Positions 6,897 to 53,025 of a stretch of DNA of 64,000 nucleotides are shown piece by piece. The notes under the pieces were generated by a model, which searched no databases, was not told the origin of the DNA, and saw only the letters and a list, made by a program, of their open reading frames with translations. This DNA is from Thermodesulfobacteriota bacterium (lineage in GTDB: Bacteria > Desulfobacterota > Binatia > Bin18). The stretch spans positions 2,336,001-2,400,000 of the forward strand of contig OZ219926.1 in NCBI GenBank assembly GCA_964291405.2, written 5' to 3'. The position numbers and the translations under genes are program-made. Within the stretch, counting starts at the first letter, position 1; each line of letters starts with the position of its first letter.

Positions 6897-7069
6897 CAAC
6901 CCCAAGCATCCGCTTTCTCTACCCTAGACGCGGAACCACGGCCTATCGTTGACGTGCGCCTTTTCGTGCGGGCACGCTCGGTCCGTTCAATAGCACGGCC
7001 TTACCTCGTCCCTTCCTTGCAGGAGGACTGGGGAGGTGGTAAACCTTCCACACACGCGACCCTGGGGGA

Positions 7070-33521: not shown

Positions 33522-34844
33522 ATGAGCCAGCGGGAAGAACAGGCCAGGACGATTGTGCAGACGCTGCATCGACATGGCTATACGGCCTATTTTGCCGGCG
33601 GCTGTGTGCGGGATCGCCTGCTGGGCATTCAGGCCAAAGACTTCGATATCGCTACGAATGCCCGGACCACCGAGGTCCGCGCCCTATTTCCGCAGACGAT
33701 CCCGGTCGGGGCTCAGTTCGGGGTTGTCCTCGTCGTCCTGGAGAGCGTTCCCTATGAGGTGGCGACCTTTCGGGCGGACGGTACCTATCGTGATGGCCGT
33801 CACCCGGTGGCGGTCCGCTTCAGCACGGACCGGGAGGATGCGCTGAGACGTGATTTCACGATTAACGGCATGTTTTTTGACCCGCTGACGGACACGATCA
33901 TCGATTATGTTGGCGGGCAAACAGATCTGAATAACCGGATCATTCGAGCCATTGGGGAGCCGGCGGCGCGCTTTCACGAAGATCGCATACGCCTGCTGCG
34001 GGCCGTCCGCCTTGCCGCCCGGCTGGGCTTCGCTATCGAGCCCGAGACCTGGCGGGCCGTGGGCCAGTTCGCTCCGACGCTGACCGACATGGCCTGGGAG
34101 CGGATCGGCGACGAGGTGGTGAAACTCCTGACCGAAGGAGGTGCACGCTCGGGGATGGAGATGTTGGTGGAGTCAGGCCTGCTGGCGGCCGCGCTGCCTG
34201 AGGTTCTGGCGCTACGCGGGGTGGCGCAGTCGCCCGATTTTCATCCCGAGGGCGATGTGTTTGTTCACACACTGTTAGTTCTGCACCAGCTCGACACCCT
34301 GGCACAGCCGAGCGAGAGCCTGGCCCTGGGAGCGCTGCTCCACGACATCGCTAAACCACACTGCCAGCAGCGGGCCGGAGAGCGCATCACCTTTCACGGC
34401 CACTGTGAGTCCGGTGCGGAGATGGCGGTCGATATATGTCAGCGTCTGAAACGCTCACGCGTGACCTGGGAGCGGGTGGCCTTTCTCGTCAAAAACCATC
34501 TGCGGCTGCTGGATGCACCCCGCATGCGAGCGGCAACGCTCAAGCGCTTCCTACGCCTCGACGGTATTGGAGAGCTGCTGGACCTCGCCCGCCTGGACGC
34601 CTTGGCGTCGCACGGCAATCTTGAGGCGTATACCTTCTGCCGTCAAAAACTGCTTGCGCTTGACCCTGAGGAACTGCATCCGCCCCGGCTGTTGAATGGC
34701 CGGGACCTGATCCAGCTCGGATTTCAGCCCGGTCCGCAGTTCTCCACTATCCTGAGGGCTCTGGAGGAAGCCCAACTCGAAGGCCGGGTGCGCACCCGAC
34801 GGGCCGCGCTCTCCTGGGTGCACCAAAACTGGCAGCATCCCTAA
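33522..34844 (+). CDS. cca: CCA tRNA nucleotidyltransferase with HD domain
   Basis: GGCVRD..D.DIAT, RRDFTIN, EDRIRLLRA.R, HPEGDVFVHT, LLHDIAK. Confidence 0.9.
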   Translation: MSQREEQARTIVQTLHRHGYTAYFAGGCVRDRLLGIQAKDFDIATNARTTEVRALFPQTIPVGAQFGVVLVVLESVPYEVATFRADGTYRDGRHPVAVRFSTDREDALRRDFTINGMFFDPLTDTIIDYVGGQTDLNNRIIRAIGEPAARFHEDRIRLLRAVRLAARLGFAIEPETWRAVGQFAPTLTDMAWERIGDEVVKLLTEGGARSGMEMLVESGLLAAALPEVLALRGVAQSPDFHPEGDVFVHTLLVLHQLDTLAQPSESLALGALLHDIAKPHCQQRAGERITFHGHCESGAEMAVDICQRLKRSRVTWERVAFLVKNHLRLLDAPRMRAATLKRFLRLDGIGELLDLARLDALASHGNLEAYTFCRQKLLALDPEELHPPRLLNGRDLIQLGFQPGPQFSTILRALEEAQLEGRVRTRRAALSWVHQNWQHP

Positions 34845-36436
34845 GAAGCCTGAGCAGTGTGCTCCGATGGAGGGAGTGTCAACGGCAGGACGACCCGGAC
34901 TGTGGTTCCGTGATTGACCTTGCTCTCGATCCGGAGTGCGCCGTTATGGGCCATGACAATATGTTTGACAATGGCCAGCCCCAAACCTGTTCCCCCCAAC
35001 TCGCGAGAACGGGCTTTATCCACCCGATAAAAACGCTGGGTCAGACGCGGAATATTGGCTTCCGGGATACCACAGCCAGTATCGGCTATGGCAATCTCCA
35101 GCCAGCCCTGTGCGCCGTTGCCTATGACATCAAGGGCGCTAACATCATGTGCCTCACGAGCGTGCTCCGCGGAGGCGGAATGTCCCCACCATGCCGGTGG
35201 CTCTCCTGCGTCGTCACGCGCAGGGTGCAGTGCCGCGGTGACCGTGACCTGACCCTGAGCTGGTGTATATTTGACCGCGTTGTCGATCAGGTTGATCAGG
35301 ACTTGGTGCAGGCGATCCCGATCTCCTCTCACGGTTGGGAGGGCGGGCGGGATATGCTGAGAGAGGGTGACCCTCCCTCGCTGGGCTTTCTCCTGTAGTA
35401 CATCAAACACTTCCTGGACGAGTTCAGGAATATGGAGTTCCTTCCGATGGAGCTCGGTCTGCCCCAATTCCAGGTTGGATAAAGTCAGGAGGTCGTCTAT
35501 GAGGCGGCTGAGACGCTCCGAGTGCCGGTCAATAATCGTGAGGAAGCGGGTCGCGTGCTCGGGGTCGTGGAGGGCACCCGTGAGCAGGGTTTCCGCATAG
35601 CCTTTGATCGCGGTGAGCGGGGTCCGGAGTTCGTGCGACACGTTGGCCACAAAGTCGGCCCGGATGGATTCGAGCTGTTTGATCGGGGTCAGATCGTGAC
35701 AGCTTAACACATGCCCGCTGGTCGTTGGCTGGCTTTCCCGAGGCGCCCCATATCCCCCGCTCTGGGGCAGGCGCAAGACGCTCACGGCGAGCTGTCGCGG
35801 CTCCTGACCCTCAACTTCGATTTCCTGGGTAACGCCCTCCGCCGATTCTGCGGACAAAAGCTGGTGTAGAACGGGATGGCGGGAAAATTCCTGAAAGGGT
35901 CGGCCCTGCCAGTCTTCCGTTGGGTCCAAACCAAACAAGTGCAGAGCGGCCGGGTTACAGCGCACGATGTTGCCATGCGGATCAATCACAACAAGGCCTT
36001 CAGCCATGCTGTGGAGCAGGGCTTCGAGTTCTTTCTTCTCGTTTTGAAGCTGCTGAAGGTGTTGGCTTTGCGTGGTGAAGAGTCGGGAGAGCTGGTACTC
36101 GATGGTGCCCAACAGGTCGTTTTTTCGGACAGGGAGGGTGGGTGGCGGGACGCGGTTCGGGACAAAAGAGTAATCGTGTCCAGCATCTGTAGGTCTGTTG
36201 GAGGACACGGTTACTCTTTCCGCCAGAAAGGCACTGAGCGCGCTCAAACGCTGCCGGAACTGTGCCCGCTGACGCAGCGCAGTACCTAGGGCGCCAAGAC
36301 CACAGGCAAGGGCTCCATACCAGACCCACTGCGGCCGGGCGTCCGCAGGAAAGAGTAAAAGGAGATGGAGCAGGAGTAGGGCCAGCAAAGCGAGACCGAC
36401 CGGAAACAGAACGGCAAAGGTAATATTGTCTCTCAC
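34841..36436 (-). CDS. phoR: Phosphate regulon sensor kinase
   Basis: Two TM helices, PAS, ANVSHELRTPLT, RFYRVDKARSR..GGTGLGL; lies in the pst operon. Confidence 0.93.
   Translation of the reverse strand: MRDNITFAVLFPVGLALLALLLLHLLLLFPADARPQWVWYGALACGLGALGTALRQRAQFRQRLSALSAFLAERVTVSSNRPTDAGHDYSFVPNRVPPPTLPVRKNDLLGTIEYQLSRLFTTQSQHLQQLQNEKKELEALLHSMAEGLVVIDPHGNIVRCNPAALHLFGLDPTEDWQGRPFQEFSRHPVLHQLLSAESAEGVTQEIEVEGQEPRQLAVSVLRLPQSGGYGAPRESQPTTSGHVLSCHDLTPIKQLESIRADFVANVSHELRTPLTAIKGYAETLLTGALHDPEHATRFLTIIDRHSERLSRLIDDLLTLSNLELGQTELHRKELHIPELVQEVFDVLQEKAQRGRVTLSQHIPPALPTVRGDRDRLHQVLINLIDNAVKYTPAQGQVTVTAALHPARDDAGEPPAWWGHSASAEHAREAHDVSALDVIGNGAQGWLEIAIADTGCGIPEANIPRLTQRFYRVDKARSRELGGTGLGLAIVKHIVMAHNGALRIESKVNHGTTVRVVLPLTLPPSEHTAQAS
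36165..36219. repeat. 54-bp palindromic element, copy 5 (inside phoR)
   Basis: AAAGAGTAATCGTGTCC...GGACACGGTTACTCTTT; read as ERVTVSSNRPTDAGHDYSF. Confidence 0.9.
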
Positions 36437-36471
36437 ACGAACGGGCTGTGTTGCATCCGGTAGCCACGCGA

Positions 36472-37272
36472 TTAGGGCTCGAGCGCCTCCGGATTAAATT
36501 TATACCCAACCCCCCGCACGGTCAGGAGCAGACTGGGGTTGGCGTCATCTTGCTCAATACGCTTCCGCAGGCGGCGGATATGGACATCGACCGTGCGGGG
36601 CTCAATATAGACGTTATGCCCCCACACCAGATCAAGGATTTGGGTCCGGCTGAAAACGCGGTTGGGGGACTGGACGAAAAATTTAAGCAGTTCAAACTCG
36701 CGCAGACCCAGTTCCAGCGGATTGCCATCGAGCTTCACTTCGTAGGTATCGTAATCGATCTGCAGGCGACCACGGACATACATCTGATGCGGCTGGTCCG
36801 TCGGCGGCCCATAGGTCCGTCGCAAGACCGCCTTGACCCGAGCGACGAGTTCGCGCGGACTGAAGGGCTTGGTCATATAGTCGTCCGCCCCCATTTCGAG
36901 GCCCAGGACTTTATCGACCTCGGAGGCGCGCGCCGTCAGCATCAAAATCGGGACGGTGGCCATCTTGTCCTGTGCGCGCAACGTTCGACACACCTCAAGG
37001 CCGGACAGGCCGGGCAGCATGAGGTCGAGAATAATAAGCGCCGGACGTTCAACCATGGCAAGATGCAGACTCACTTCGCCGTCACTCGCTTCGAGAACGG
37101 TAAAACCTTCGGTTTCCAGATGATATCGAACCAGGTCACGGATATCTTTTTCATCTTCAATGATCAGCACTTTCCGCTTGGGCAAAGAGGAAACATCCCC
37201 AGCATCTGCGTGTCTATTGGAGGACACGTTTCCTCTTCCCGCCGCCTCCGCTGTCTGCTGTTGTCCCGCCAT
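36472..37272 (-). CDS. phoB: Phosphate regulon response regulator
   Basis: OmpR family (DLMLP, GADDYMTKPF, RTVDVHIRRLR); SD AGAGGAGG; N-terminal extension. Confidence 0.93.
   Translation of the reverse strand: MAGQQQTAEAAGRGNVSSNRHADAGDVSSLPKRKVLIIEDEKDIRDLVRYHLETEGFTVLEASDGEVSLHLAMVERPALIILDLMLPGLSGLEVCRTLRAQDKMATVPILMLTARASEVDKVLGLEMGADDYMTKPFSPRELVARVKAVLRRTYGPPTDQPHQMYVRGRLQIDYDTYEVKLDGNPLELGLREFELLKFFVQSPNRVFSRTQILDLVWGHNVYIEPRTVDVHIRRLRKRIEQDDANPSLLLTVRGVGYKFNPEALEP
37184..37238. repeat. 54-bp palindromic element, copy 6 (inside the phoB N-terminus)
   Basis: AAAGAGGAAACATCCCC...GGACACGTTTCCTCTTC; read as GRGNVSSNRHADAGDVSSL. Confidence 0.88.
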
Positions 37273-37285
37273 AACCTCCTCTGTT

Positions 37286-38041
37286 TTAGACTGACTCGGG
37301 TAAGGGCGAGATATGGCGTATGCTCTTGCCCTTTGCCAGATAGATCACCATCTCGGCGATATTGGTGGCGTGGTCCGCAACCCGCTCAAGGTATTTGGCG
37401 ATAAACAATATCCGCATGGCGCGGCTGGCGTATTCGGGTTCCCGCCGCATCTGAGACAGCATAGTGTTGAAAATCTGAGCGGTGAGATCATCAATCCGGT
37501 CATCGCGCTGGCATACACTCAGGGCGAGGTCGGGCGCCTCGGCCACAAAATCGCTGAGTTTGTCTCCGAGGGAGACGCGCGTATCGGGGGCAGCAGTGAC
37601 ATCAGAAGAGGACTGCAAAAACGCGTCGAGGCTGTCGCGCAGCATAGCCCGGGCGCCCTCGGCCATTTCGGGTAATTCCGGCCGCGGGGCGAGGGGCGCT
37701 TCCTTATTGAGCTCGATCGCCCGCTCACAGATATTCTCAGCAATATCGCCGATACGCTCAAGATCGGTGGAAATCCGCAGACTGGTGGTAATAAAGCGTA
37801 AATCCCGAGCGGCCGGTTGATGCAGGGCGAGCAGGCGGATACAGGCTTCATCAATGGCGACATCAAGATAGTTGACCATATGGTCACGCTCTATGACCTC
37901 GTGGGCGGTCTGCGAGTCGCGCTCGACGAACGAGGTGAAGGCATCCCCAATCTGCTTTTCAACCAACCCGCCCATTTCCAACACCTTGGCCCGAAGCTGC
38001 TGAAGTTCTTCTTCGTACTGGCTATCCGTATGAAGTGGCAT
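37286..38041 (-). CDS. phoU: Phosphate signalling protein PhoU
   Basis: QPAARDLR, DLERIGD, LERVADHATNIAE. Confidence 0.96.
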   Translation of the reverse strand: MPLHTDSQYEEELQQLRAKVLEMGGLVEKQIGDAFTSFVERDSQTAHEVIERDHMVNYLDVAIDEACIRLLALHQPAARDLRFITTSLRISTDLERIGDIAENICERAIELNKEAPLAPRPELPEMAEGARAMLRDSLDAFLQSSSDVTAAPDTRVSLGDKLSDFVAEAPDLALSVCQRDDRIDDLTAQIFNTMLSQMRREPEYASRAMRILFIAKYLERVADHATNIAEMVIYLAKGKSIRHISPLPESV

Positions 38042-38054
38042 AAGGCCTCCGCTT

Positions 38055-38912
38055 CTAGCCGAATCGGCCGGTAATATAGTCTTCAGTTGCCTGTTTTTCC
38101 GGGGTAGTGAATAATTTTTCGGTCTTTCCGAACTCTATCAATTCACCCAAATACATAAAAGCGGTGAAATCCGAGACTCGTGCGGCCTGCTGCATATTGT
38201 GGGTGACGATGACAATCGTATACTGCTTTTTCAGCTCATGGATAAGTTCTTCAATTTTTGTCGTGGCAATCGGATCCAGGGCGGAGCAGGGTTCATCCAT
38301 CAGAACGACTTCGGGCTCAACCGCAATGGTCCGGGCGATGCACAGGCGTTGGTGCTGCCCACCGGATAAACCCAGCGCATTGTCGTGCAGCCGATCCTTG
38401 GCTTCTTCCCAGAGGGCGGCGGCGCGCAGACTCTTCTCAACGATATCATCCAACTGCGCCTTGTTGTGGATACCGAGCACCCGTGGCCCGTAGGCAACGT
38501 TTTCATAGATGGTCTTGGGAAAGGGGTTCGGCTTTTGGAATACCATGCCGACCCGTTTGCGCAGCTCGGTGACGTCAAGCGTTTGATCGAGAATTTGGAT
38601 GCCGCCCACGATAATACTGCCGCTGGTCGTACAGCCGTCGATCAGGTCGTTCAAGCGGTTTAGGCAGCGCAGCAGGGTGGACTTGCCGCAGCCCGACGGG
38701 CCGATGAAGGCCGTTACCTGGCCTCTGGCGATATCCATATCGATATGCTTGAGGGTCTGGGTCCTGCCGTCGTAGCTGAGACACACGTCCCGAATTTCAA
38801 CTTCGATATTGTCCCGCGTGCCGAGAGCGGTGGGGTCATGGCCGTTGCCCGAATCCGGTCGCGGCGGCAGGGTTACGGCGTGCCCGACTGGAGATTTTTC
38901 CTGGCTTTCCAT
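38055..38912 (-). CDS. pstB: Phosphate ABC transporter ATPase
   Basis: [33 protein letters not shown]. Confidence 0.97.
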
Positions 38913-38925
38913 ACTCACTCTCCCT

Positions 38926-40554
38926 TTAGAAGGCGCCAAAGCGTAAGCGGCTACGTAAGCGGTTCCGAATCGCAATCGCAGCCAGGTTCAAGGCAATGAC
39001 AATCACAATCAGCAGCAGGGTCGTCATAAAGACCATGGGCTTGGCCGCCTCGACATTCGGCGACTGGAAGCCGACATCGTAAATATGAAACCCCAGATGC
39101 ATAAATTTTCGTTCCAGATGAAAGAACGGCCAATGGCCGTCAACGGGCAGGGTTGGGGCCAGTTTGACCACGCCGGTGATCATCAGCGGAGCGACTTCCC
39201 CGGCGCCACGGGCCATAGCCAGAATCGTCCCGGTCAGGATGCCCGGCAAAGCGCCGGGAATCACAATTTTTCGGAGGGTCTCCCACTTGGTCGCGCCCAG
39301 CGCCAACGAGCCCTCCCGCCACTCTGTTGGGATGGCGGACAAGGATTCTTCGGTGGCGACAATCACCACCGGGACGGTCAGCAAGGCCAAGGTCAACGAA
39401 GCCCACAGAATCCCGCCGGTGCCATAGGTCGGGGTGGGCAGGGAATCCTGGTAGAAGAGCTGGTCCAGCGACCCGCCGATCATATACACAAAAAACCCGA
39501 GGCCAAAGACGCCAAACACAATCGAGGGCACGCCGGCGAGGTTGTTGACCGCAATCCGGACGGCGCGGACCAGCGGACCTTGCTTGGCATATTCGCGTAG
39601 ATACAGGGCGGCGACCACGCCAAAAGGAACCACCACAATGCTCATGATGATGACCATCATGACCGTCCCGAAAATAGCGGGGAACACGCCGCCCTCGGTG
39701 TTGGCCTCGCGCGGGTCTTCCCAAAAGAATTCCCAGAAGCGCGTCACGTACAGGCCGAGGCGTTCAAACCAGTTCATATCGTTGGGCAGAAAACCACGCA
39801 CCACACCGGCGATAGCCAGCTCTTTTTCTTTGCCGTTAATGTCCTGCACAGTCATGTGATAGCGCGAGTTTTCTTGGTATAACGCGGCGAGTTCCTGGGC
39901 TTTTTCCTCGTAGGCCAGTTGCAAAGAGGCGATGGCCTCCTCAAGCGCGGCAATTTTTTCGGCGGCCCTGGTGGGGTCGGCCTCGCTGCGCTGGGTGCGT
40001 TTGACCTCGATGCGCAGTTGTTCGAGCTCGTAGTTAATATCCCCAATATCTTTCTTTTCGATGGCGTGGATATCGTCCAGCGTGTCTTGGGTCCGGGCGT
40101 GGAGTTCCAGGAATTTTGGCCAGGCCTGGTCAAAACCCTCGGCGACGATTTCTCCGTCCTGTCGCACCGTGGTGAGAAAGCCAAAAAACGGGCCCCATTC
40201 ATACCGTTCCAAATATATCGCCTGCTCCGGAAACGCATGCCCGGTCATCAGGCTGTCATCCACCCAGCGAAAATCGGAGCCGTACAGGTCACGGTTGGCG
40301 ACCTGGAATTGCGTCCGGTAGTATTCCCGGACGGCTCCGGTCTGTTGCGGAATAGCCTCCTGGGCACGGACCGACCCCAGGAGCTTTTGTCCGTTCTGAA
40401 GGTCAACGGCCCTGAGTTGGTCGGGCCAGAAGAACCCGAGCGCATTGGCCCCAACGATCCAAATGAGGGCAGCGATCATAAGCAGACTGAAGACCAGAGT
40501 GCCCCCCGTCATCCAGATGAACGGGTCGCCGCTGCGTAGAAAGCCTTTGAACAT
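38926..40554 (-). CDS. pstA: Phosphate ABC transporter permease (long form)
   Basis: [30 protein letters not shown]; start placed at MFKGF. Confidence 0.94.
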
Positions 40555-40621
40555 GCCACCCCCCCTCTTCCCCCCCAAAGGGGGGGATGGGTATTGATGC
40601 GGCACCACGGACGCCGAAGAA

Positions 40622-42964
40622 TTAGATACGGCCATAACGATCTCGTAAGCGCTGGCGGACAACTTCCGCCGCGGTATTGACCAAAAACGTTAAAATAAAG
40701 AGGAGCAGGGCGGCCAGGAAGAGGACGCGGTAGAGCGTCCCGCCGTGAGGCGCTTCCGGGATTTCCACCGCGATATTCGCCGATAAGGCACGGAAGCCGG
40801 TAAAGGGATCAAAGTCCATGACGGGCGTATTACCGGTGGCCATCAGGACAATCATGGTTTCCCCGACTGCTCGTCCGAAGCCGATCATGATGGCCGAGAA
40901 CACACCGGGGCTGGCCGTTGGCAGCACGACCCGCAGGGCCGTTTGCCAGCGCGTCGCCCCCAGCGCTAACGAGCCGGAAATCAGATGCTGGGGAACGTTG
41001 GAAAAGGCGTCCTCACAGATAGTGTAGATAATCGGGATGACGGCAAAACCCATGGCAAAACCCACAATCAGGGAGTTGCGGGGGTCGTACCGCACCCCGG
41101 TGGTGTCGTACAGCCATTGGGGGAAATCACCGGCGAAAAAGGCGGCCTCAAGCGGAGTGTTGAGCACGACACAGATGTAGATGGAGAGCATGAGCAGCGG
41201 GGCCAGGAACAGGAGTTCAGCACCCGGTTTCAGGCTGCTGCGAAAGCCGAGGGGCAGCAGCCGCCAGGCAAATGACGCACCCAGGGTCACCAAGGGCATC
41301 ACGATAAACATCAGCAGCATGGCCGGCACCATATCGGCCACCAGGGGCGCCAGCCACAGACCGGCAAAAAAGCCGAGCACGACGCTGGGCAGGGCGGCCA
41401 TCACCTCGACCGAGGGCTTGACTATATTGCGCAGCCGCGGATGCATGAACTGTGAGGTATACATCGCGCCGCACAGACTGAGGGGAATGGCTAACAGCAG
41501 GGCGTAAAATGTTCCTTTCAAGGTCCCGTAGGCCAGTGGGGAAAGGCTGAATTTCGGCTCAAAATCGTCCGTTCCACTGCTGGACTGCCAGGTATAGTCT
41601 GGGGCGTCATAGCCCTCGTACCATATCTTTCCGAACAGAGAGGAAAAGGTGATCTCCGGATGGGGATTATCAACCGTCCAGTTGTACAACTGGCCTTCTT
41701 GATTGAGAGCGATGATACCATTTGTCCGTGGGGCATAGGCGAGCTGGGTAATCGGGCTGCTGGCTGTGTCGCGGCTCAAAATGGTGGTTTCGGTGGTTGA
41801 ATACTGGATGCGGACCGTGCCGCTGGTATCGCCGGTCACAAAGCCTTTATTCCGTGGAGAGGGAGAGATGGTCGTAATAGGTGCGTCGTGGGACTGCATC
41901 ACATGAATTTCACGGAAGGGAAGTTCGGCCGGATTGTCCTGATCGCGCACCTGGAACCAGACACTCACCCCCCCGGCGTCATCTCCCATAACGAGAGAGC
42001 GGTCGCCAATCAACCAGGCCATTGCCCGGACGGGAGCCCGCCCTTGACCTCGTAAGCGCGGCTTGACCTGGGGCGCAGCGGCGTCGCGAATATCCCAATG
42101 GATCACCTCACCGGTTTCTAGTGCGGCAAACAGGTTTCGCTGTTCTGCATCTAACGTCAACGCCGTCGCGTTCGCATCCAGCGCCGCTGAGAGCTCTGCG
42201 CGGTGTTCCGATACCTGCGTCTCGCCCAAGAATGATTCTTCGACTGTTCGAGACAGGAAGAGGAGGGTGCGTGGGCCGAGCAGGGCGGCCAGTGTCATCT
42301 TCTCCTCGTCTTCGCTGGTACTCTGGTAGGTCAGAGCCTGAATAGCGCGGCCTTGTGGGTCGAGGACAATCGCCTCATCTTCCATAACCTGAGGCGTGCT
42401 GATGCGGGTCTTGCCCTCGAACGAGACCGGGAAGGAAATCGTCAGGGGAACAGCGATACCGTCCGCGGTTCCGAGCACGGCGGTGTGCGTCAGGTTACGA
42501 TAGTGCACCGCGGTGATCCGCCGCCCCTGCAGGGCTTGGATTTCATACCGTTGGAGGAGTTGGTTGTCCGCGAGGGACAGAAAATCAACCGTTCCCGCCT
42601 GGGTAATAGTGTAGGCGATTTCTCGATACTCATCGATGCCCAGCGCGAGGACATTCGTATGGGGCCCACTGCCAACCAGGTCGGTCAGCGGAATTGGCGG
42701 GGTCTCAAGCTCCGCAGTAGGTACCTTCCAGAGGGGTAAGGTTTCGGCCACGATCACAAAAAGAATCGCGGCGATGCTCAGAATCACGGCAAAGCCACCA
42801 CCGGTGATCAGAATAGTCGCAGCCTTATCAACCAGCTTTTTCCGCTGGAGTCGGCTTTTATCCTCGGTCGCCGAGAGACGGACACCGACCGGCTGCGCTC
42901 CGTTTGCGGCCGGTAGCGATGACGGTTGGGAGGGACGTTCCTGCGTCTCCGGCATGATAGACAT
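40622..42964 (-). CDS. pstC: Phosphate ABC transporter permease with a large periplasmic beta-rich domain
   Basis: WQSSSG.D.FEPKFSL, RAVGETMIVLMATGN. Confidence 0.94.
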   Translation of the reverse strand: MSIMPETQERPSQPSSLPAANGAQPVGVRLSATEDKSRLQRKKLVDKAATILITGGGFAVILSIAAILFVIVAETLPLWKVPTAELETPPIPLTDLVGSGPHTNVLALGIDEYREIAYTITQAGTVDFLSLADNQLLQRYEIQALQGRRITAVHYRNLTHTAVLGTADGIAVPLTISFPVSFEGKTRISTPQVMEDEAIVLDPQGRAIQALTYQSTSEDEEKMTLAALLGPRTLLFLSRTVEESFLGETQVSEHRAELSAALDANATALTLDAEQRNLFAALETGEVIHWDIRDAAAPQVKPRLRGQGRAPVRAMAWLIGDRSLVMGDDAGGVSVWFQVRDQDNPAELPFREIHVMQSHDAPITTISPSPRNKGFVTGDTSGTVRIQYSTTETTILSRDTASSPITQLAYAPRTNGIIALNQEGQLYNWTVDNPHPEITFSSLFGKIWYEGYDAPDYTWQSSSGTDDFEPKFSLSPLAYGTLKGTFYALLLAIPLSLCGAMYTSQFMHPRLRNIVKPSVEVMAALPSVVLGFFAGLWLAPLVADMVPAMLLMFIVMPLVTLGASFAWRLLPLGFRSSLKPGAELLFLAPLLMLSIYICVVLNTPLEAAFFAGDFPQWLYDTTGVRYDPRNSLIVGFAMGFAVIPIIYTICEDAFSNVPQHLISGSLALGATRWQTALRVVLPTASPGVFSAIMIGFGRAVGETMIVLMATGNTPVMDFDPFTGFRALSANIAVEIPEAPHGGTLYRVLFLAALLLFILTFLVNTAAEVVRQRLRDRYGRI

Positions 42965-43002
42965 ACCTTATGCTATTCTGCGAACAGGGCAAGCGGTGAA
43001 CA

Positions 43003-43032
43003 CAGACGGGCGGGAGGGCCTCCGCCCGTCTG
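43003..43032 (-). terminator. GC-rich hairpin between pstS and pstC (mRNA stabiliser or partial terminator)
   Basis: CAGACGGGCGG/CCGCCCGTCTG 11-bp stem. Confidence 0.55.
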
Positions 43033-43049
43033 CTATTTCATCCTGGTAC

Positions 43050-43104
43050 AAAAAGGAAACGTGTCCGGCATCATACATGCTATTGGAGGACACATTTCCT
43101 TTTT
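43050..43104. repeat. 54-bp palindromic element, copy 7
   Basis: AAAAAGGAAACGTGTCC...GGACACATTTCCTTTTT. Confidence 0.88.
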
Positions 43105-43128
43105 CGAAGGTACGCGTGAGAAGAGCGC

Positions 43129-44097
43129 TTATTCCAAGGCCGCTCGATCTTCATTCACCAGCTTGGCAGACATTGGATAGTAGCCGTCCTTGACCACGAT
43201 CTCTTGTCCTTCCTTGCTCAGGACAAACTTGAGAAATTCCTTAGTCAGGGGGTCGAGCGCCTTGTTCGGTTCCTTGTTCACATAGACAAACAGGAAGCGG
43301 GATAAGGGATACTGACCGCTGGCCACATTCTCGTACGTGGGCTCGACATAATCACTGCCTTCTTTGACTAGCGGGATGGCACGTACGCCAGAGGTCGTGT
43401 AGCCAATACCGCTGTAGCCGGCCCCTTTTCTGTCCTCACTCACGCCTTGGACTACAGAGGCCGAGCCCGGCTGCTCTTTCACCGTATCCTTGTAGTCGCC
43501 CTTGCACAGCGCGACCTTCTTGAAGAAGCCGTAGGTGCCCGAGGCGGAATTACGACCGTACAGGCTGATCGGCGCTGAGGCCCAGTTACCGCTCAGGCCC
43601 AGGTCGCCCCAGGTGGCGGTATCCAGAGTCGCGCCGCATTTGCGGTTTTTCGAGAACAGGGCATCGACCTGCTGAATGTTGAGCCCCTGGATCGGATTAT
43701 CCTTATTGACAAAGACGGCCAGTGAGTCGAGCGAGGTCCGAACCGGAGTCGGTTTGTAGCCGAACTTCTTCTCAAACTCGTCCGTCTCTTTGCTCTTCAT
43801 GGCACGGGACATGGGACCGAGTTGGGCCGTGGCTTCAATCAACGCCGGCGGGGCGGTGCTTGAGCCTTTGCCTTCGATCTGGACGTTCACGTTGGGATAG
43901 ACTTTTTTAAACCCTTCGGCCCACAGGGTCATCAGGTTGTTGAGCGTATCTGAACCGATGCTGTTCAGGTTGCCCGAGATGCCGCTGACCTTTTCATAAC
44001 TGGGCAGGTCGGCGTCGACCTGAATCGTCTGGGCGCTTGCCACCGAGGCGCTCAGCGCCAGGGCTCCACACAGGGCCAGTAGTTTTCGCATTTTCAT
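43129..44097 (-). CDS. pstS: Phosphate-binding protein
   Basis: Signal peptide; [25 protein letters not shown]. Confidence 0.96.
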
Positions 44098-44121
44098 ACT
44101 CTCTCCTCCATAGGGATTACT

Positions 44122-45537
44122 TTAGAAATCGACCATGAAGCGCGCCTGGACGATATCGGCATCGCCGCAGTGGTCACCCATGTCGCCTTTGTAATAACAG
44201 TCATCTTCATCCAACATCGCGCGCACATAGTTGAGCATAAAGCGCATGTTAGGGTTGAGATACCAGTTGACGCCAAAGGTGAAGTTGCTCAGCTCGCCGC
44301 CGTTCATGTCTTCGTCGTTCAGGTCTAGCATGGAGTAGCGGGCCGCGAGTTCCAACGCCCCGTAGCCGCCCTTCCAGTCGAAATTGTTCTTGGGCTTGAC
44401 CCGGTCGAACGCTCCATTCGAGGTCTTGTAGGCCCGATGCTCTCCGGTCAGGAAGAAACTGCCGAAGACGTAAAACCCGTCATAGTGGATGTCGTCTCCC
44501 GAGGGTCGGTCAACCAAGGCGCTCATCCACTCGAACTGCACCGAGGCCGGGCCGTATACCAGCGCCACTTCGGGGTTGAAGTAGTCCACGTCCTCGATGT
44601 GAAACTTCGGGGTTTCTACGAACCGGGGGCCGAGATGCGCTTCGGGCCGTTGACGCCACCGAATCCTGTTGCCCTTGTCGTGGAACGCGTGCCGGTATGA
44701 CAGTCCGAGGTGGAGGAGCTGTCGGCCCTTTTCCTGATACCAGGGCAGGGTCGTAAACCGGGTCGTGGCATTGTAGACCCCGCTGTTGCCGAAGGTCGTG
44801 CTGGTGTCGGCCGGATTGCCTTCCCGGAAAAAACCGAACGCCGCGGTAGCGCGCTTATCCAGAAAGGCCCGGTTCAAGCGCACACCGAGGTTACGACCGC
44901 TGGAGAATACATTGGGCAGCGAGCGCTCCATAAAGGTAAGGTATTTACTGCTATTCAGTTCTTCGAGCGAGAACGGCTCCTTGAAATGGCCGACCGTGAA
45001 GTTCCCGGCCATCGGGACTTTCTTGATCTGGATATAGGCATCTTTGAACGGGTCGGAGCTGGCAAAGTCGTACTGAAATTTGTACTTGATGTTGCCGTAG
45101 ACGCTGCCTTCCATGAAGAAGCGTGCCCGCCGGAACTCCGTGCCATCGCCGATTCGGCCAAACTGTCGCCGAATCTTCTTGTCCGTGCTGTAGACGGCCC
45201 AGTCGTTCTGGATTCGACCGCCGACCTTCAGCTTGAATTTGCCGTCGGCCGAGTCGAGCCGCAGCCCGCTCTTCCAGTAGGCGGCCAGAAAATTCTTCTT
45301 GCCGACGTTTTTCTCTAAGCCTTCGACCTTTTGAGTCAGGTCCGAGGCGGCCGCAACCTTCTCATCCTCGGCTTGGGCCTTAATCATCAGATCGCGGTAC
45401 TGCTCCTCGCTGATCTGCCCATTGGCTTTCAGAATATCCAGGATTTCTGCGGCCACATTCTTGGCCTGGGCTGGTCGTGCCAGCAGCAGCCCGGCCGCAA
45501 CAAGGCCGACGCAGAACGCTAATCCCAATCGTCTCAT
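44122..45537 (-). CDS. Phosphate-selective porin OprO/OprP family
   Basis: EFRRAR, G.FKEPFSLEEL.SS....FMER, GVNWYLN; first gene of the pst operon. Confidence 0.93.
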   Translation of the reverse strand: MRRLGLAFCVGLVAAGLLLARPAQAKNVAAEILDILKANGQISEEQYRDLMIKAQAEDEKVAAASDLTQKVEGLEKNVGKKNFLAAYWKSGLRLDSADGKFKLKVGGRIQNDWAVYSTDKKIRRQFGRIGDGTEFRRARFFMEGSVYGNIKYKFQYDFASSDPFKDAYIQIKKVPMAGNFTVGHFKEPFSLEELNSSKYLTFMERSLPNVFSSGRNLGVRLNRAFLDKRATAAFGFFREGNPADTSTTFGNSGVYNATTRFTTLPWYQEKGRQLLHLGLSYRHAFHDKGNRIRWRQRPEAHLGPRFVETPKFHIEDVDYFNPEVALVYGPASVQFEWMSALVDRPSGDDIHYDGFYVFGSFFLTGEHRAYKTSNGAFDRVKPKNNFDWKGGYGALELAARYSMLDLNDEDMNGGELSNFTFGVNWYLNPNMRFMLNYVRAMLDEDDCYYKGDMGDHCGDADIVQARFMVDF

Positions 45538-45662
45538 ATGGTATGTCTCCTCCTCCAGTGTTGAATTCCTGCTCTGACGTTTCTCCAGTACCTCGGTTGA
45601 CGCATGACTTCTTCTATACCATTTCCGCAGATCACCCCCTCTCGTGCGGGCCAGAGATGAGC

Positions 45663-45718
45663 AGGGTAGGTTCGGGCTGTTACAAGAAAGTGACAGGGCC
45701 GTTATGAATGTGTGAAAA
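45663..45718 (-). promoter_or_regulatory. Pho-box promoter of the oprP-pst-pho operon
   Basis: TTTTCAC, TCATAAC, CTGTCAC, TTGTAAC at an 11-nt period, then 10 nt, then -10 TACCCT. Confidence 0.85.
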
Positions 45719-48816: not shown

Positions 48817-50214
48817 TCAGACAAATTGTAAAAACAGGGTTAAAATACCCAAAAAGGACAAAAAGCCAAAAATATCCGTGCACGCGGTGACAAACACGTT
48901 TGAGGCCACCGCCGGATCAACACCCAGGCGACGGAGGGTCAGGGGGACCATACTCCCGACAGACGCCGCAATGATTAGGTTGGCCAGCAGCGCCAGCGCC
49001 AGCACGACGCCCAGGGTGGGATCGCCCTTCCACAGGTAAGCAAGAATGCCGGCCGCGGCACCAAGAGCCAGACCATTGCCCAACGCGATGGTCAGTTCCT
49101 TGACTAACACCCGCTTGGTTTGTGTCAGTGGGACTTCACCCAGAGCAATACCCCGAACGATGACGGTAAGTGTTTGTACGCCGGCATTTCCACCCTGGGC
49201 CGCGACAATAGTCATAAAGGCCGCCGCAATGGCAATTTGCTGAATCGTTCCTTCAAAAAAGGCAATGACAAGAGCACTCAGCGTTGTGGTCACTAAATTG
49301 AGCGCCAGCCAGGGCAAACGAAGGCGGATAGACAGCCAGGGCGAGTCCAGCACTTCTTCCTCTTCATCGAGGCCGGCAAGCTTATAAATGTCTTCCGTCG
49401 CCTCCTCCTCCATGACATCAACCACGTCATCAACCGTAATACGCCCGAGTAAACATCCTTCGCTATCGACTACGGGCAGGGAAATCAGGTCATATTTTTT
49501 AAACATCTGGGCGACCTGTTCCTGATCCAGGTCCGCCCGAACCGAAATGACCTGCCGGTCCATGACGGTTTCGACGAGATCAGTCGGGCGGGCGAGAATA
49601 AACTTCCGGAGGGGGAGGACGCCGACGAGGCGATTGGTGTTACTCACGATAAAGACACTGTGGATATCCGGGATCTCATTGCTCTGACTGCGAATCATCT
49701 CAGTGGCTTGGTCGATACGCGTGCCTTGGGACACGGCCATATACTCGACCTGCATGATACCGCCGGCGGTATCCTCGGGATAACGTAAGAGTTGGGTGAC
49801 TTCGTCGGACACGTCCTGCGGCACTTCGTCGAGAACCGCTTTGGCGCGCCGCGCCGAGAGGGAGGCCAGCAAGTCCGTGGCGTCATCAGAGTCAAGATAT
49901 TCGACCAAGTCTCCTAGCCCGTCATCCGATAGGCGCTCAACGAGATCGTCTTTGGTGTGGGCGGAAACGAGACTTAAGACCTCGGCTGCCTGTGGGGCGG
50001 CCAGAAAGCCAAACACCTTGTGCTTCACCTCAGGCTCTTCCAGCACATTCAACAACTCTGCGGTGTCCGCTGGGTGCAGGGCGGCAACCCCCGTCCGCAC
50101 AATCTCGTCCTGACCCAACTCGGCCTGAATGACGAGATGTTCGAGGGAAGGCGGTTGCGGGGAGCCCTGAGGTGAGGCCGCTGCAACCGGCGGATATGTC
50201 GTCTGCGCTTCCAT
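48817..50214 (-). CDS. mgtE: Magnesium transporter
   Basis: YPEDTAGGIM, CBS pair, GRITVDD, RLPWL, GGNAGVQ, DPA; start placed at MEAQ. Confidence 0.95.
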   Translation of the reverse strand: MEAQTTYPPVAAASPQGSPQPPSLEHLVIQAELGQDEIVRTGVAALHPADTAELLNVLEEPEVKHKVFGFLAAPQAAEVLSLVSAHTKDDLVERLSDDGLGDLVEYLDSDDATDLLASLSARRAKAVLDEVPQDVSDEVTQLLRYPEDTAGGIMQVEYMAVSQGTRIDQATEMIRSQSNEIPDIHSVFIVSNTNRLVGVLPLRKFILARPTDLVETVMDRQVISVRADLDQEQVAQMFKKYDLISLPVVDSEGCLLGRITVDDVVDVMEEEATEDIYKLAGLDEEEEVLDSPWLSIRLRLPWLALNLVTTTLSALVIAFFEGTIQQIAIAAAFMTIVAAQGGNAGVQTLTVIVRGIALGEVPLTQTKRVLVKELTIALGNGLALGAAAGILAYLWKGDPTLGVVLALALLANLIIAASVGSMVPLTLRRLGVDPAVASNVFVTACTDIFGFLSFLGILTLFLQFV

Positions 50215-50229
50215 GCGTCGTCTCGCTTC

Positions 50230-50283
50230 AAAGAGGAAACGTGTCCAGCATCTCTCTATCATTGGAGAGCACGTTTCCTCTTT
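50230..50283. repeat. 54-bp palindromic element, copy 8
   Basis: AAAGAGGAAACGTGTCC...GAGCACGTTTCCTCTTT; 15 nt from the mgtE ATG. Confidence 0.9.
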
Positions 50284-50366
50284 TCGTCCGAACTGTAGCT
50301 GCCAAATCACAAAAGATGAATGGCCTCGCCTACAGTGGGAGTGACCTGAGCAGATGCGGCCCGACG

Positions 50367-50406
50367 GCGTCACACATTTTTCACCGGAGCGTCACAATGT
50401 TGTCAT
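50367..50406 (+). promoter_or_regulatory. Pho-box array 1
   Basis: GCGTCAC, TTTTCAC, GCGTCAC, TTGTCAT at an 11-nt period. Confidence 0.78.
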
Positions 50407-50431
50407 ACAACGAGGAAACATAGGGGGAAGA

Positions 50432-50512
50432 AACGCTATCCCTACCCCCCGCGCTGCCAGGGCATGTTGATCCTCCTCCCTAGGGTCGCCCGCCCCTGGC
50501 AGCGCCCCCCTT
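50432..50512 (+). ncRNA. Candidate anti-SD hairpin RNA, unit 1
   Basis: AACGCTATCCCTACCCCCC leader; GCGCTGCCAGGG/CCCTGGCAGCGC stem; loop TCCTCCCTA. Confidence 0.55.
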
Positions 50513-50548
50513 AGTGTCTTGAACTCTTATGCTGCACGAATAACCGGA

Positions 50549-50593
50549 CTGTCATTGAGCTGTCACTCAGGTGTAAAATCTCCCCGATAAGAT
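50549..50593 (+). promoter_or_regulatory. Pho-box promoter 2
   Basis: CTGTCAT, CTGTCAC, GTGTAAA at an 11-nt period, then exactly 10 nt, then -10 TAAGAT. Confidence 0.85.
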
Positions 50594-50597
50594 AGAG

Positions 50598-50684
50598 AAC
50601 GCTATCCCTACCCCCCGGCGCTGCTAGGTGCCGTGTCGATCTCCCTCCCTAGGATCACACGCCCTGGCAGCGCCCCCTCCTCTC
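50598..50684 (+). ncRNA. Candidate anti-SD hairpin RNA, unit 2
   Basis: Same 19-nt leader as unit 1; GGCGCTGCTAGG/CCTGGCAGCGCC stem; loop CCCTCCCTA. Confidence 0.55.
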
Positions 50685-50842
50685 GCTACTGTGGGTTCAT
50701 AACCTGATGCTATCCTGGTCGATAGAAACAGTAGCGTCCTGGTGTGGGCTGGTCGGGTAGCGCAGATCGCTCTACGGGGTTGCTATTCAGCGTGCTGAGC
50801 TTATATCTATCGTTGTCGGAGCGTACACCAGATGTCTGATAG

Positions 50843-50896
50843 AAGGAGGAAACGTGTTCTCCAATGGTAGAGAGATGCTGAACACGTTTCCTCTTG
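50843..50896. repeat. 54-bp palindromic element, copy 9 (inverted sister of copy 8)
   Basis: 49/54 identical to the reverse complement of copy 8; 14 nt before the ppk1 ATG. Confidence 0.9.
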
Positions 50897-50910
50897 ACGG
50901 CGGTATCTGC

Positions 50911-53025
50911 ATGGAAGACAAGCCTTTTATTAACCGTGAATTGTCCTGGCTCGAATTCAACCGACGCGTGCTTGAAGAGGCCTTCGACGAAAGCGTCCCC
51001 TTGCTCGAACGCGTCAAGTTCATGGCCATATTCAGCGCCAATATGGACGAATTTTTTATGGTCCGTGTGGCGCGACTCAAGCGGCGTATTGCGCAGGGCG
51101 ACCTGGAGGCCGGTCCGGATGGCATGACACCGGCCCAAACGCTGACCGCTATCTCAAAACGAGTCCATGAGCTTGCCGAGGAACAACACCGGGGTTTTCT
51201 GGAGACCATTCAGCCGCAACTGGAGGCCGAGGGGATTCATATTACCCGCCCGGAAGAGTTGAACACCGAGCAGAGTCATTTTCTTGAAGACTTCTTTCGG
51301 CGGACCCTGCTGCCAGTTGTCACGCCGCTGGCGATCGATCCCGGCCATCCCTTTCCCCACCTCGGTAATCGCTCCCTGTGTCTGGTCGCAGCCCTGCGCT
51401 CGGCCGGAACCTCGCGTCTGCCCCAGACCAAACTGGCCGTTGTTCATATTCCCAGCCAAGTCGTCCAGCGTTTTATTGCGCTACCGGCTCCAGCTGGCAA
51501 GCATATCTTTATCCTGCTCGAAGATGTGGTGCGGCTGTACCTGCCCCGCCCGTATCACGGCTATGAGATCCTGTCGTGTCACGCCGTCCGGGTGACGCGG
51601 GACGCGGACTCGGCCCTGGCACTCGGCCGAACCGAAGATCTCCTCACGAGTATCGAAGAGAGCGTGCGCGACCGGCGCATGGGGACCGCGGTGCGGCTGC
51701 AATACGACTCCGACCTGCCGCAGGGCGTTCTCAATATGTTTATTGATGAACTCGACCTGCGCCCCGAAGATCTGTACGGCGGTGAGGGTTTCACCGCTTT
51801 TACCGACCTGTTTCAGCTCTATGGAGCCGTGGACCTGCCGCAGCATAAAGACCAGCCGTGGACGCCCCTGCCGGTCCCGGCCTGTGAGCAAAAGCCGGAT
51901 ATGTGGAGTGCAATTCGGGAGGGCGACATCCTGGTGCACCATCCCTACCAATCTTTCGATGTGGTGATGCGCTTTGTGGAAGAGGCCGCGACCGACCCGA
52001 ATGTCCTGGCCATTAAAATGACCCTCTACCGGGTCAGCCCGACCTCGCCTATTGCCCAGGCGCTCACGCGGGCCGCAGAAGCGGGTAAGGAAGTAGCCGT
52101 CCTGGTCGAACTCCGCGCCCGTTTTGATGAGGAAGCCAATATTACCTGGGCGCGCGCGCTCGAAGAGGTCGGCGCCCATGTGGTGTATGGCCTGGTCGGC
52201 TATAAGACCCACTGCAAGGCCTGCCTGGTGGTACGGCGTGAGAATGGTGGCATCCGTCGCTACTGCCATCTCGCAACCGGCAACTACAACGTGAATACGA
52301 GCGGCATCTACGGCGACTTCGGTCTCTTTACCTGCCGCGAGTCCTTTGGCGACGATCTCACCGACCTGTTTAACCTGTTAACCGGCTATACCCGCCCCCA
52401 GGCGTTTCACCATCTCCTGGTCGCTCCCACGAGTATGCGGGAGGGCATGATTGAGCGGATTCGGCGCGAAGCGGAACACGCCCTGGAGGGTAAGCCGGCC
52501 AGGATCATTGCCAAGATCAACAGTCTGGTTGACGCAGCCATGATTGAGGAGCTGTATACTGCCAGCCAGGCGGGGGTGGAGATTGATCTCATCATCCGTG
52601 GCATCTGCTGCCTGCGGCCCGGACTGCCAGGCATATCCGAACGGATTCGGGTAATTTCGATTATCGATCGCTACCTCGAACACGCCCGCATCTTTTATTT
52701 TCATAATGATGGCGAGGCCGAGTATTTCCTCTCCTCGGCCGACTGGATGCCGCGCAATCTGGACCGCCGCGTCGAGGTCGCCTTTCCCATCCTTGATCCC
52801 CATATCCAGGCCCAGCTTTTTGAAATACTCAGCATTCAACTGGCCGACACGGTCAAGGCCCGCACGATCCTCCCCGATGGACGCTCCAAGCGGGTAGAGC
52901 CCGACCCGCTCGCCCCTGTCCGTTCTCAACAACGCCTGTACGAATTTACCAAGACCCAGTCCGACGCTCAGATGCCCGTTGAGGGAGAGCCCGACCTAGA
53001 CGGTTTGCAGCCGTTTGAAGGGTAG
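50911..53025 (+). CDS. ppk1: Polyphosphate kinase 1
   Basis: FINRELSWLEFNRRVL, DEFFMVRVA, HHPY, KTHCK, RYLEHARI, SADWMPRN. Confidence 0.98.
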   Translation: MEDKPFINRELSWLEFNRRVLEEAFDESVPLLERVKFMAIFSANMDEFFMVRVARLKRRIAQGDLEAGPDGMTPAQTLTAISKRVHELAEEQHRGFLETIQPQLEAEGIHITRPEELNTEQSHFLEDFFRRTLLPVVTPLAIDPGHPFPHLGNRSLCLVAALRSAGTSRLPQTKLAVVHIPSQVVQRFIALPAPAGKHIFILLEDVVRLYLPRPYHGYEILSCHAVRVTRDADSALALGRTEDLLTSIEESVRDRRMGTAVRLQYDSDLPQGVLNMFIDELDLRPEDLYGGEGFTAFTDLFQLYGAVDLPQHKDQPWTPLPVPACEQKPDMWSAIREGDILVHHPYQSFDVVMRFVEEAATDPNVLAIKMTLYRVSPTSPIAQALTRAAEAGKEVAVLVELRARFDEEANITWARALEEVGAHVVYGLVGYKTHCKACLVVRRENGGIRRYCHLATGNYNVNTSGIYGDFGLFTCRESFGDDLTDLFNLLTGYTRPQAFHHLLVAPTSMREGMIERIRREAEHALEGKPARIIAKINSLVDAAMIEELYTASQAGVEIDLIIRGICCLRPGLPGISERIRVISIIDRYLEHARIFYFHNDGEAEYFLSSADWMPRNLDRRVEVAFPILDPHIQAQLFEILSIQLADTVKARTILPDGRSKRVEPDPLAPVRSQQRLYEFTKTQSDAQMPVEGEPDLDGLQPFEG

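Follow-up and report, generated by a model that had tools for sequence, protein, structure and literature searches.

Two tandem Pho-box-preceded hairpin modules upstream of ppk1 in a Binatia genome: candidate small RNAs with anti-Shine–Dalgarno-like loops

What is the role of two closely similar hairpins, each placed behind its own array of Pho-box half-sites, that lie in tandem upstream of the polyphosphate kinase gene ppk1 in a bacterium of the Binatia? The pair is found in a stretch of 64,000 nucleotides (contig OZ219926.1, positions 2,336,001 to 2,400,000, of assembly GCA_964291405.2), which we refer to as the window; the genome to which it belongs comprises 4.95 Mb in three contigs and is 97.5% complete. 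A first-pass annotation, made from the letters alone, had proposed that the hairpins are sibling small RNAs of phosphate starvation and had offered structured leaders of the ppk1 transcript as the alternative. We find that the module of promoter and hairpin is real, conserved and transcribed; its anatomy, conservation, strand and copy number are established, as are its presence in RNA libraries and its independence from ppk1 in two genomes. With regard to function, we favor PhoB-driven small RNAs with anti-Shine–Dalgarno (anti-SD) loops and some read-through into ppk1, a reading whose chances we consider evenly balanced; the small-RNA and ppk1-leader readings can both hold. The two modules are composed of the following parts.

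50367–50424, plus strand: promoter module A, four half-sites, 10–12 nt and a weak −10-like element, AACATA/CATAGG (50417–50424); evidence, sequence.
50432–50515, plus strand: unit 1, a 19-nt C-rich leader, an imperfect hairpin of the 23-bp class, a UCCUCCUCCCUA loop region and a C-rich tail; covariance-model score, 73.2 bits.
50549–50593, plus strand: promoter module B, three half-sites, 10 nt and the −10-like element TAAGAT (50588–50593); evidence, sequence.
50598–50684, plus strand: unit 2, the same leader, a hairpin with a CUCCCUCCCUA loop region and the tail CCCCCUCCUCUC; covariance-model score, 108.1 bits.

The units start 166 nt apart, with a gap of 82 nt between them, and share an identical leader of 20 nt, AACGCTATCCCTACCCCCCG (50432–50451 and 50598–50617), as well as an identical 3′ arm of 16 nt, CCCTGGCAGCGCCCCC (50494–50509 and 50662–50677). 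Each forms a single hairpin of 56–58 nt. The arms of the outer stem are 12 nt long and show 100% complementarity in unit 1 and 92% in unit 2, and apical stems of 5 bp (GATCC/GGGTC and GATCT/GGATC) close the 9-nt loops TCCTCCCTA and CCCTCCCTA, both of which contain CCUCCC. The motif UCCCUA is found in the leader as well as in the loop, and the flanks of the units are C-rich and G-poor. On the plus strand, the predicted folds have energies of −34.9 kcal/mol (unit 1; z −5.2) and −37.8 kcal/mol (unit 2; z −7.2), and none of 200 shuffles was as stable; the corresponding minus-strand folds have z values of −2.2 and −3.0. All that the first-pass annotation had stated about the sequence of the two ~85-nt units (shared leader, outer stem, loops, closing stems and 166-nt spacing) holds.

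Both promoter arrays are built from 7-nt half-sites with 4-nt spacers and thus have a period of 11 nt. Array A consists of GCGTCAC (50367–50373), TTTTCAC (50378–50384), GCGTCAC (50389–50395) and TTGTCAT (50400–50406), and array B of CTGTCAT, CTGTCAC and GTGTAAA, starting at 50549, 50560 and 50571, respectively. In Escherichia coli, a Pho-box array replaces the −35 element and lies about 10 nt upstream of the −10 hexamer. TAAGAT follows array B at a distance of 10 nt and each unit has its own 11-nt-periodic array, as already described in the first-pass annotation. The core of the E. coli Pho box is given as CTGTCAT in the relevant part of PMC4415409. The same geometry of half-sites, 4-nt spacers, 10 nt and −10 element is present in the promoter of the porin–pst operon (TTTTCAC-4-TCATAAC-4-CTGTCAC-4-TTGTAAC, 10 nt, TACCCT), which is kept in relatives. 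A strict sigma-70 scan of the mgtE–ppk1 intergenic region returned no site. When the entire genome was searched with a regular expression for triple half-sites, only arrays A and B matched, and an intergenic scan for half-site dimers added two matches, one of which, before an EF-G gene, looks like chance. A Pho-box array stands ahead of each of the 26 units listed from our genome and its relatives, always at the same distance: 18 are of type A (GCGTCAC-4-TTTTCAY-4-GNGTCAC-4-TTGTCAT) and 8 of type B (CTGTCAC-4-CTGTCAC-4-GTGTAAA). These arrays suggest that the units are under the control of PhoB.

To what extent is the module conserved? A covariance model (R1), built from 26 units, has 24 plus-strand matches in 18 of 56 ppk1 loci. 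Searches of whole genomes with R1 were positive for 20 of the 28 genomes of one Binatia genus (our own included), with one or two copies in each. At the level of the class, 12 of 151 sampled Binatia genomes are positive, all from one of 73 genera; no match was obtained in the 137 sampled genomes of the 72 other genera, with stricter filters under which weak matches may be lost. R1 also has no match in ppk1 loci with a PPK1 identity of 73% or less. Among 18 type-A modules, mean pairwise identity amounts to 0.83 for the Pho boxes, 0.78 for the leader, 0.85 for the loop and 0.91 for the 3′ outer stem, against 0.61–0.65 for the middle of the stem, 0.61 for the tail and 0.36 for the next 60 nt. Since identity falls to 0.36 past the tail, the conserved entity is the promoter together with ~85 nt, ending at the tail. 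The CCTCCC-type core of the loop is near-invariant, and 4 of the 28 distinct units have the strict form, TCCTCCTCC. Structure and loop are thus kept in relatives, in line with the first-pass annotation.

In our own genome, both BLAST and R1 find only the two units; the next R1 match is the antisense of unit 1, with 18.9 bits and an E-value of 1.3. A search of positions 49500–51500 against Rfam 15, with E-values up to 10, gave three chance matches to eukaryotic microRNAs or long non-coding RNAs, none of them on the units. A family of repetitive extragenic palindromes (REPs) or miniature inverted-repeat transposable elements (MITEs) was considered and rejected on account of the two copies in our genome and the one or two in each of the 19 other positive genomes of the genus; that the units are not REPs agrees with the first-pass annotation.

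The number of modules varies between relatives. Remnants of the inter-unit spacer and of the third type-B half-site (TGAACTCGTATCGGTGTAAAATC) are present after the last unit in L012, L013, L014, L016, L021, L022 and L024, which suggests that module number changes by unequal recombination. Near-identical hairpins occupy the first position in one species and the second in another (L116:1748 and L016:2753), and at L021:2745–2895 two hairpins abut with a period of ~66 nt, the second without leader and promoter of its own.

To assess the structure, we aligned the units in two ways. In a MAFFT alignment, 91.9% of the 591 cells of the 23-pair hairpin are paired, compared with 35–47% when the partners are slid, and three pairs are changed on both sides. 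The observed percentage paired is reached by 5 of 500 shuffles and the covariation score by 22 of 500. In a model-fitted alignment of the 28 distinct units, which is biased towards structure, 93.5% of cells are paired, double changes affect 5 pairs and 13 cells, and the observed values are attained by 0 of 500 shuffles. The most distant units, those of L027 and L036, have another sequence, which also pairs, in place of the whole inner stem. There are 60 G·U cells against 21 A·C cells (MAFFT) and 71 against 16 (fitted), and the plus strand pairs in 91.9% of cells (MAFFT; ~92–94% over both alignments), the minus strand in 85.3%. This surplus of G·U cells points to a plus-strand RNA and agrees with the orientation of the Pho boxes.

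The units are located in a gap of 696 nt that separates the divergent genes mgtE (minus strand) and ppk1 (plus strand), 5 kb from a complete Pho cluster (porin–pstSCAB–phoU–phoBR). The surrounding features are as follows.

50911–53025, plus strand: ppk1, polyphosphate kinase 1, 704 aa, with four PPK Pfam domains (E 2e-41 to 7e-73) and its ATG at 50911.
50780–50807, plus strand: a promoter-like stretch near ppk1, TTGCTA-16 nt-TATATC, within GGGGTTGC...GCTGAGCTTATATCTATCG; evidence, conservation.
48817–50214, minus strand: mgtE, divergent, with Pfam domains MgtE, MgtE_N and CBS; ATG at 50214 from sequence.
34841–45556, minus strand: the Pho cluster, with OprO/P porin, pstS, pstC, pstA, pstB, phoU, a PhoB-like regulator and a PhoR-like kinase; evidence, Pfam.
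45547–45556, minus strand: the porin ribosome-binding site (RBS), GGAGGAGGAG; evidence, sequence.
About 45664–45716, minus strand: the Pho-box promoter of the porin–pst operon; evidence, sequence and conservation.

According to Pfam, the PhoB-like regulator (36472–37272) is of the OmpR type and the PhoR-like kinase is a PAS histidine kinase. PPK1 is 95–99% identical to proteins from ~20 metagenome-assembled genomes labelled Candidatus Binatia. The stretch proximal to ppk1 is not picked up by the strict sigma-70 scan; it is recognizable in the window and in 17 of 20 relatives' loci, including L020 and L025, where there is no hairpin, and has diverged in L027, L036 and L059. We read it as a putative promoter belonging to ppk1 itself.

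In two genomes, the module is maintained independently of ppk1. In G027, a type-A promoter with an intact hairpin (75 bits, with G·U-compatible changes) adjoins mgtE, and ~70 nt past the hairpin a convergent pair of genes (Gp49/HTH) has its 3′ end; ppk1 is situated 5.2 kb from the module and keeps a type-B Pho box without hairpin. In G006, unit 1 is cut off from ppk1 and the second module by an insertion of 5.4 kb that carries a 1681-aa cadherin-like gene. L020 has lost Pho boxes and hairpin by deletion, with ppk1 and the proximal element intact. Where unit and ppk1 are neighbors, the distance from the unit to the ppk1 ATG ranges from 85 to 506 nt.

Near-identical sequence is present in sponge-labelled RNA runs. 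In run X4, a contig of 125 nt corresponds to window positions 50603–50680, that is, a 78-nt insert that ends 6 nt past the stem, with adapter-like sequence at both ends; its depth is 46, although per-contig depths and uncovered parts (X1, X3 and X4) are unsuitable for ranking unit against ppk1. In a second contig, the adapter abuts position 50446, inside unit 1, and contigs from three further RNA runs also cover the region. The long contigs of X2, with even depth over mgtE and ppk1, may represent DNA.

We propose that phosphate limitation would cause the PhoB-type (Pho-box) promoter of each unit to fire and to yield a plus-strand RNA that would begin with ~85 nt made up of a C-rich leader of 14–19 nt, the long stable hairpin with its CCUCCC loop and a C/U-rich tail. 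This ~85-nt piece would build up as a separate small RNA with a 3′ end that probably arises by Rho-dependent or otherwise non-canonical termination and subsequent trimming to the hairpin. The C-rich single strands, like the anti-SD tail of 16S rRNA, would pair with G-rich RBSs in an Hfq-independent manner and reduce the translation of a group of mRNAs, the better target candidates including the start regions of porin and pstS. Part of the transcripts would read through and provide phosphate-dependent expression of ppk1 besides that from its proximal promoter-like element. As regards the phosphate-starvation small RNAs of the first-pass annotation, the Pho box before all 26 units and the occurrence in RNA libraries speak for them; the control by PhoB and the action in trans, like the 3′-end mechanism and the targets, are what we infer.

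The 3′ end of 16S rRNA in this genome is GGATCACCTCCTTTCT, which the loops GAUCCUCCUCCC and GAUCUCCCUCCC resemble. Neither Hfq nor CsrA was found in the genome (97.5% complete), and Rho is present. Potential targets were ranked among 4701 open reading frame (ORF) starts from crude gene calls, using duplex energies of isolated segments with accessibility left out. The porin start region ranks 31st with the loop of unit 1 and 367th with that of unit 2, and the pstS start region 50th and 102nd, respectively; the ppk1 start region ranks 4157th and 4517th, and beyond 3800 for every segment tested. GGAGGAGGAG is indeed present at the porin RBS on the minus strand, where the first-pass annotation had placed a possible feedback target; the rank of 31 with unit 1 is in its favor, the rank of 367 with unit 2 and the constancy of the site described below are not. 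A perfect 13-nt complement of the leader at G000:C3:1067243 was rejected as a probable coincidence; it is not at a start region and sits in a long inverted repeat after a stop codon and before a Sua5/TsaC-like gene. A fuller version of the proposal, in which Hfq-free anti-SD mimics from the genome's strongest Pho boxes occlude GGAGGAG-type RBSs, including those of porin and PstS, in a negative feedback, with the same promoters feeding ppk1, appears rather unlikely to us as a whole.

Several observations weigh against small RNAs that act in trans. Neither hairpin is followed by a U-tail or intrinsic terminator, as the first-pass annotation had seen, and a terminator scan of 50150–50960 returned no site; in place of a U-tract there are the tail CCCCCCUUAGU in unit 1 and the above-mentioned tail in unit 2. 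Since U-tailed terminators are not enriched in the 20 kb around the locus (18 found, 18.2 expected), the missing U-tail says little. The relatives are close, and covariation is accordingly thin: with the unbiased MAFFT alignment, at least as many doubly changed pairs as observed arise in 357 of 500 shuffles. A scored genome-wide scan gave 5 triple half-site matches, compared with ~4.9 expected from a shuffle, and 3 of the 5 fall within arrays A and B, so that the local strength of the arrays is supported and a large regulon is not. Strong SD sites of the GGAGGAG type are favored by any anti-SD-like loop, which makes target prediction unspecific. There is no co-variation between loop variants and the porin RBS, and 15 of 21 genomes keep this site unaltered irrespective of the loop that they have; with this constancy and the strict loop in 4 of 28 units, porin feedback is conjectural. 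Finally, the RNA contigs give no true ends, strand or abundance and are thus only a hint either way: fragmentation or PCR could have produced the 78-nt insert, and a 354-nt contig of run X3 joins 50528–50687, 50770–50842 and 50911–50969 (codons 1–20 of ppk1), indicating that read-through or a long leader exists.

The last point bears directly on the alternative that the hairpin is a leader in cis and nothing else. The Pho-box promoters, tandem-duplicated in some species, would then serve ppk1, and the hairpin would be the 5′ end of its mRNA, either as a 5′ stabilizer or as a Rho-dependent or processing attenuator with the C-rich flanks as Rho loading sites, the short RNA being a by-product. 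We regard this explanation as possible, if on the unlikely side, and the structured leader put forward in the first-pass annotation is still live, given the contig that bridges unit 2 and ppk1. Of the 20 positive genomes, 18 have at least one co-oriented unit immediately before ppk1, without another Pho box in between, and ppk is a usual gene of the Pho regulon, its induction being common according to the part of PMC4415409 that deals with it. The empty terminator scan, the presence of Rho and the C-rich, G-poor flanks are also in its favor, and the type-B Pho box that G027 retains before ppk1 without a hairpin ties Pho boxes to ppk1. However, the intact G027 module has just convergent genes downstream, and L020 retains ppk1 and its proximal element despite the loss of the module. 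A stabilizer hairpin would not need its loop to be better conserved than the middle of its stem, nor its leader sequence to be kept, and conservation ends at the tail whereas the distance to the ppk1 ATG varies. Moreover, the single strands of the units pair poorly with the ppk1 start region, which takes a place beyond 3800 in the ranking.

The RNA could also act as a decoy, its UCCCUA and CCUCCC motifs binding a protein or mimicking the 16S 3′ tail and competing globally for G-rich sites rather than controlling individual mRNAs. UCCCUA in both leader and loop, the resemblance of loop and apical stem to the 16S 3′ end (GAUC...CCUCC), the lack of a detected Hfq and, weakly, the deep unit contig in one RNA run are compatible with this idea; yet there is no CsrA to be sponged, GGA motifs occur in the stem and none in the loops, the genes next to the units include no candidate for a binding protein, and the idea is purely inferential. 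We consider it improbable. A DNA-level repeat (REP or MITE) or chance palindrome with no RNA function is hardly credible. Copy number differs between species, there are the traces of unequal recombination, and a true REP-like family of 53-nt palindromes flanks the same intergenic region, but the units are limited to two copies per genome, always at this locus, each with a conserved promoter upstream, they are present in RNA libraries, and the preponderance of G·U favors one transcribed strand.

Small RNAs and attenuators derived from 5′ leaders are promoter-proximal structured RNAs that may end early or read through. Unlike members of this class, the units have no evident ligand-binding fold or terminator/antiterminator alternative, and the G027 module has no co-oriented downstream gene. 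The first-pass annotation had pointed to the cuckoo RNAs (alpha-r14/RSs0680 = CcsR1-4/SmelC397) of Alphaproteobacteria; the relevant sections of PMC4615179 describe them as transcripts with 2–4 adjacent hairpins of 24–50 nt, each with CCUCCUCCC. Anti-SD-like C-rich loops, variable stems and tandem paralogues are common to both, the cuckoo copies being stress-induced in that account. However, the units have one 56–58-nt hairpin per promoter (the abutting pair of L021 is the sole one to resemble the cuckoo arrangement), CCUCCUCCC is present in unit 1 and not in unit 2 and in its strict form in 4 of 28 units, with only the CCUCCC core near-invariant, no Rfam model matches and the phylum is a different one. 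As far as these sections of PMC4615179 go, RSs0680a is bound by Hfq, which was not found here, and the cuckoo promoter is of the RpoHI/HII type, compared with the Pho-box type of the units. The proposed kinship is thus not supported.

GC-rich hairpins that expose C-runs and pair with RBSs without a need for Hfq are known from staphylococcal RNAs with UCCC loops of the RsaE/RNAIII type (PMC4615179, in part), and the mycobacterial 6C/B11 RNAs likewise have GC-rich hairpins whose exposed C-runs are able to pair with G-rich RBSs in an Hfq-free manner (PMC12395582, in part). In contrast to these C-rich small RNAs, with which the units were compared through Rfam only, the signal here would be phosphate and the targets are putative. 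Bacillus PhoS is also a small RNA under a phosphate two-component regulator that may feed back on the Pho regulon, as summarized in PMC11522486; according to the same summary it derives from the phoPR 3′ UTR, whereas the units have stand-alone promoters before ppk1, share no homology with it and have a regulation predicted from their letters. The units most likely act like C-rich small RNAs with anti-SD loops. The genus-restricted RNA family would be new, but its kind is familiar and no new principle would be involved.

A full-text literature search returned no paper that combines Binatota and small RNA. If the proposal is correct, no candidate for a regulatory RNA would have been described in the Binatia/Binatota before the units, which would also join the few RNAs under the phosphate regulon; according to PMC11522486, the regulators known for phosphorus metabolism in bacteria are almost exclusively proteins. 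The locus would link Pho signalling, polyphosphate synthesis and translation control, and if the Hfq-free mimics described above exist, they would make up a circuit, confined to one Binatia genus, that combines RNA with polyphosphate. For sponge symbionts, PMC9999580 considers limitation by phosphate as well as the storage of polyphosphate. The natural variants, with two units, one, none or an orphan module, are ready genetic contrasts. An element limited to one genus and of a familiar class, be it C-rich small RNA or leader, would be useful rather than surprising.

The 53-nt palindromes that flank the intergenic region, AAAGAGGAAACGTGTCC...GGACACGTTTCCTCTTT, are a family separate from the units. 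The flanking copies are located at 50231–50283 and 50843–50895, 16–17 nt upstream of the ATGs of mgtE and ppk1, and further copies in the window lie near 7068, 37183, 55538 and 56029. Genome-wide, 40 of 95 first-look candidates were scored, yielding 54 matches. Each arm of the palindrome bears the SD-like sequence GAGGAAAC followed by GTG. The ppk1-side copy is absent in some strains, where 4 other letters replace it in RNA contigs.

Within the Pho cluster, the pstC-like permease (40622–42964, minus strand) is 780 aa long; its BPD_transp_1 domain covers residues 502–774 and is preceded on the N-terminal side by weak WD40/β-propeller-like matches at about residues 253–448. The permease that follows is likewise long, with 578 aa. 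Between pstS and pstC, a GC-rich palindromic hairpin of 12 bp without U-tract (43003–43032) may be an intra-operon stabilizer that sets an excess of pstS. The porin leader holds an upstream ORF of 23 codons (MRQPRYWRNVRAGIQHWRRRHTI and stop; ~45535–45606, minus strand), the TGA of which overlaps the porin ATG (ATGA), and the porin RBS doubles as its WRRR codons. In relatives, an extended SD sequence, GGGGGTGATC, stands ahead of this ORF. The window has the ORF intact, as do 14 of the 21 porin loci inspected in relatives.

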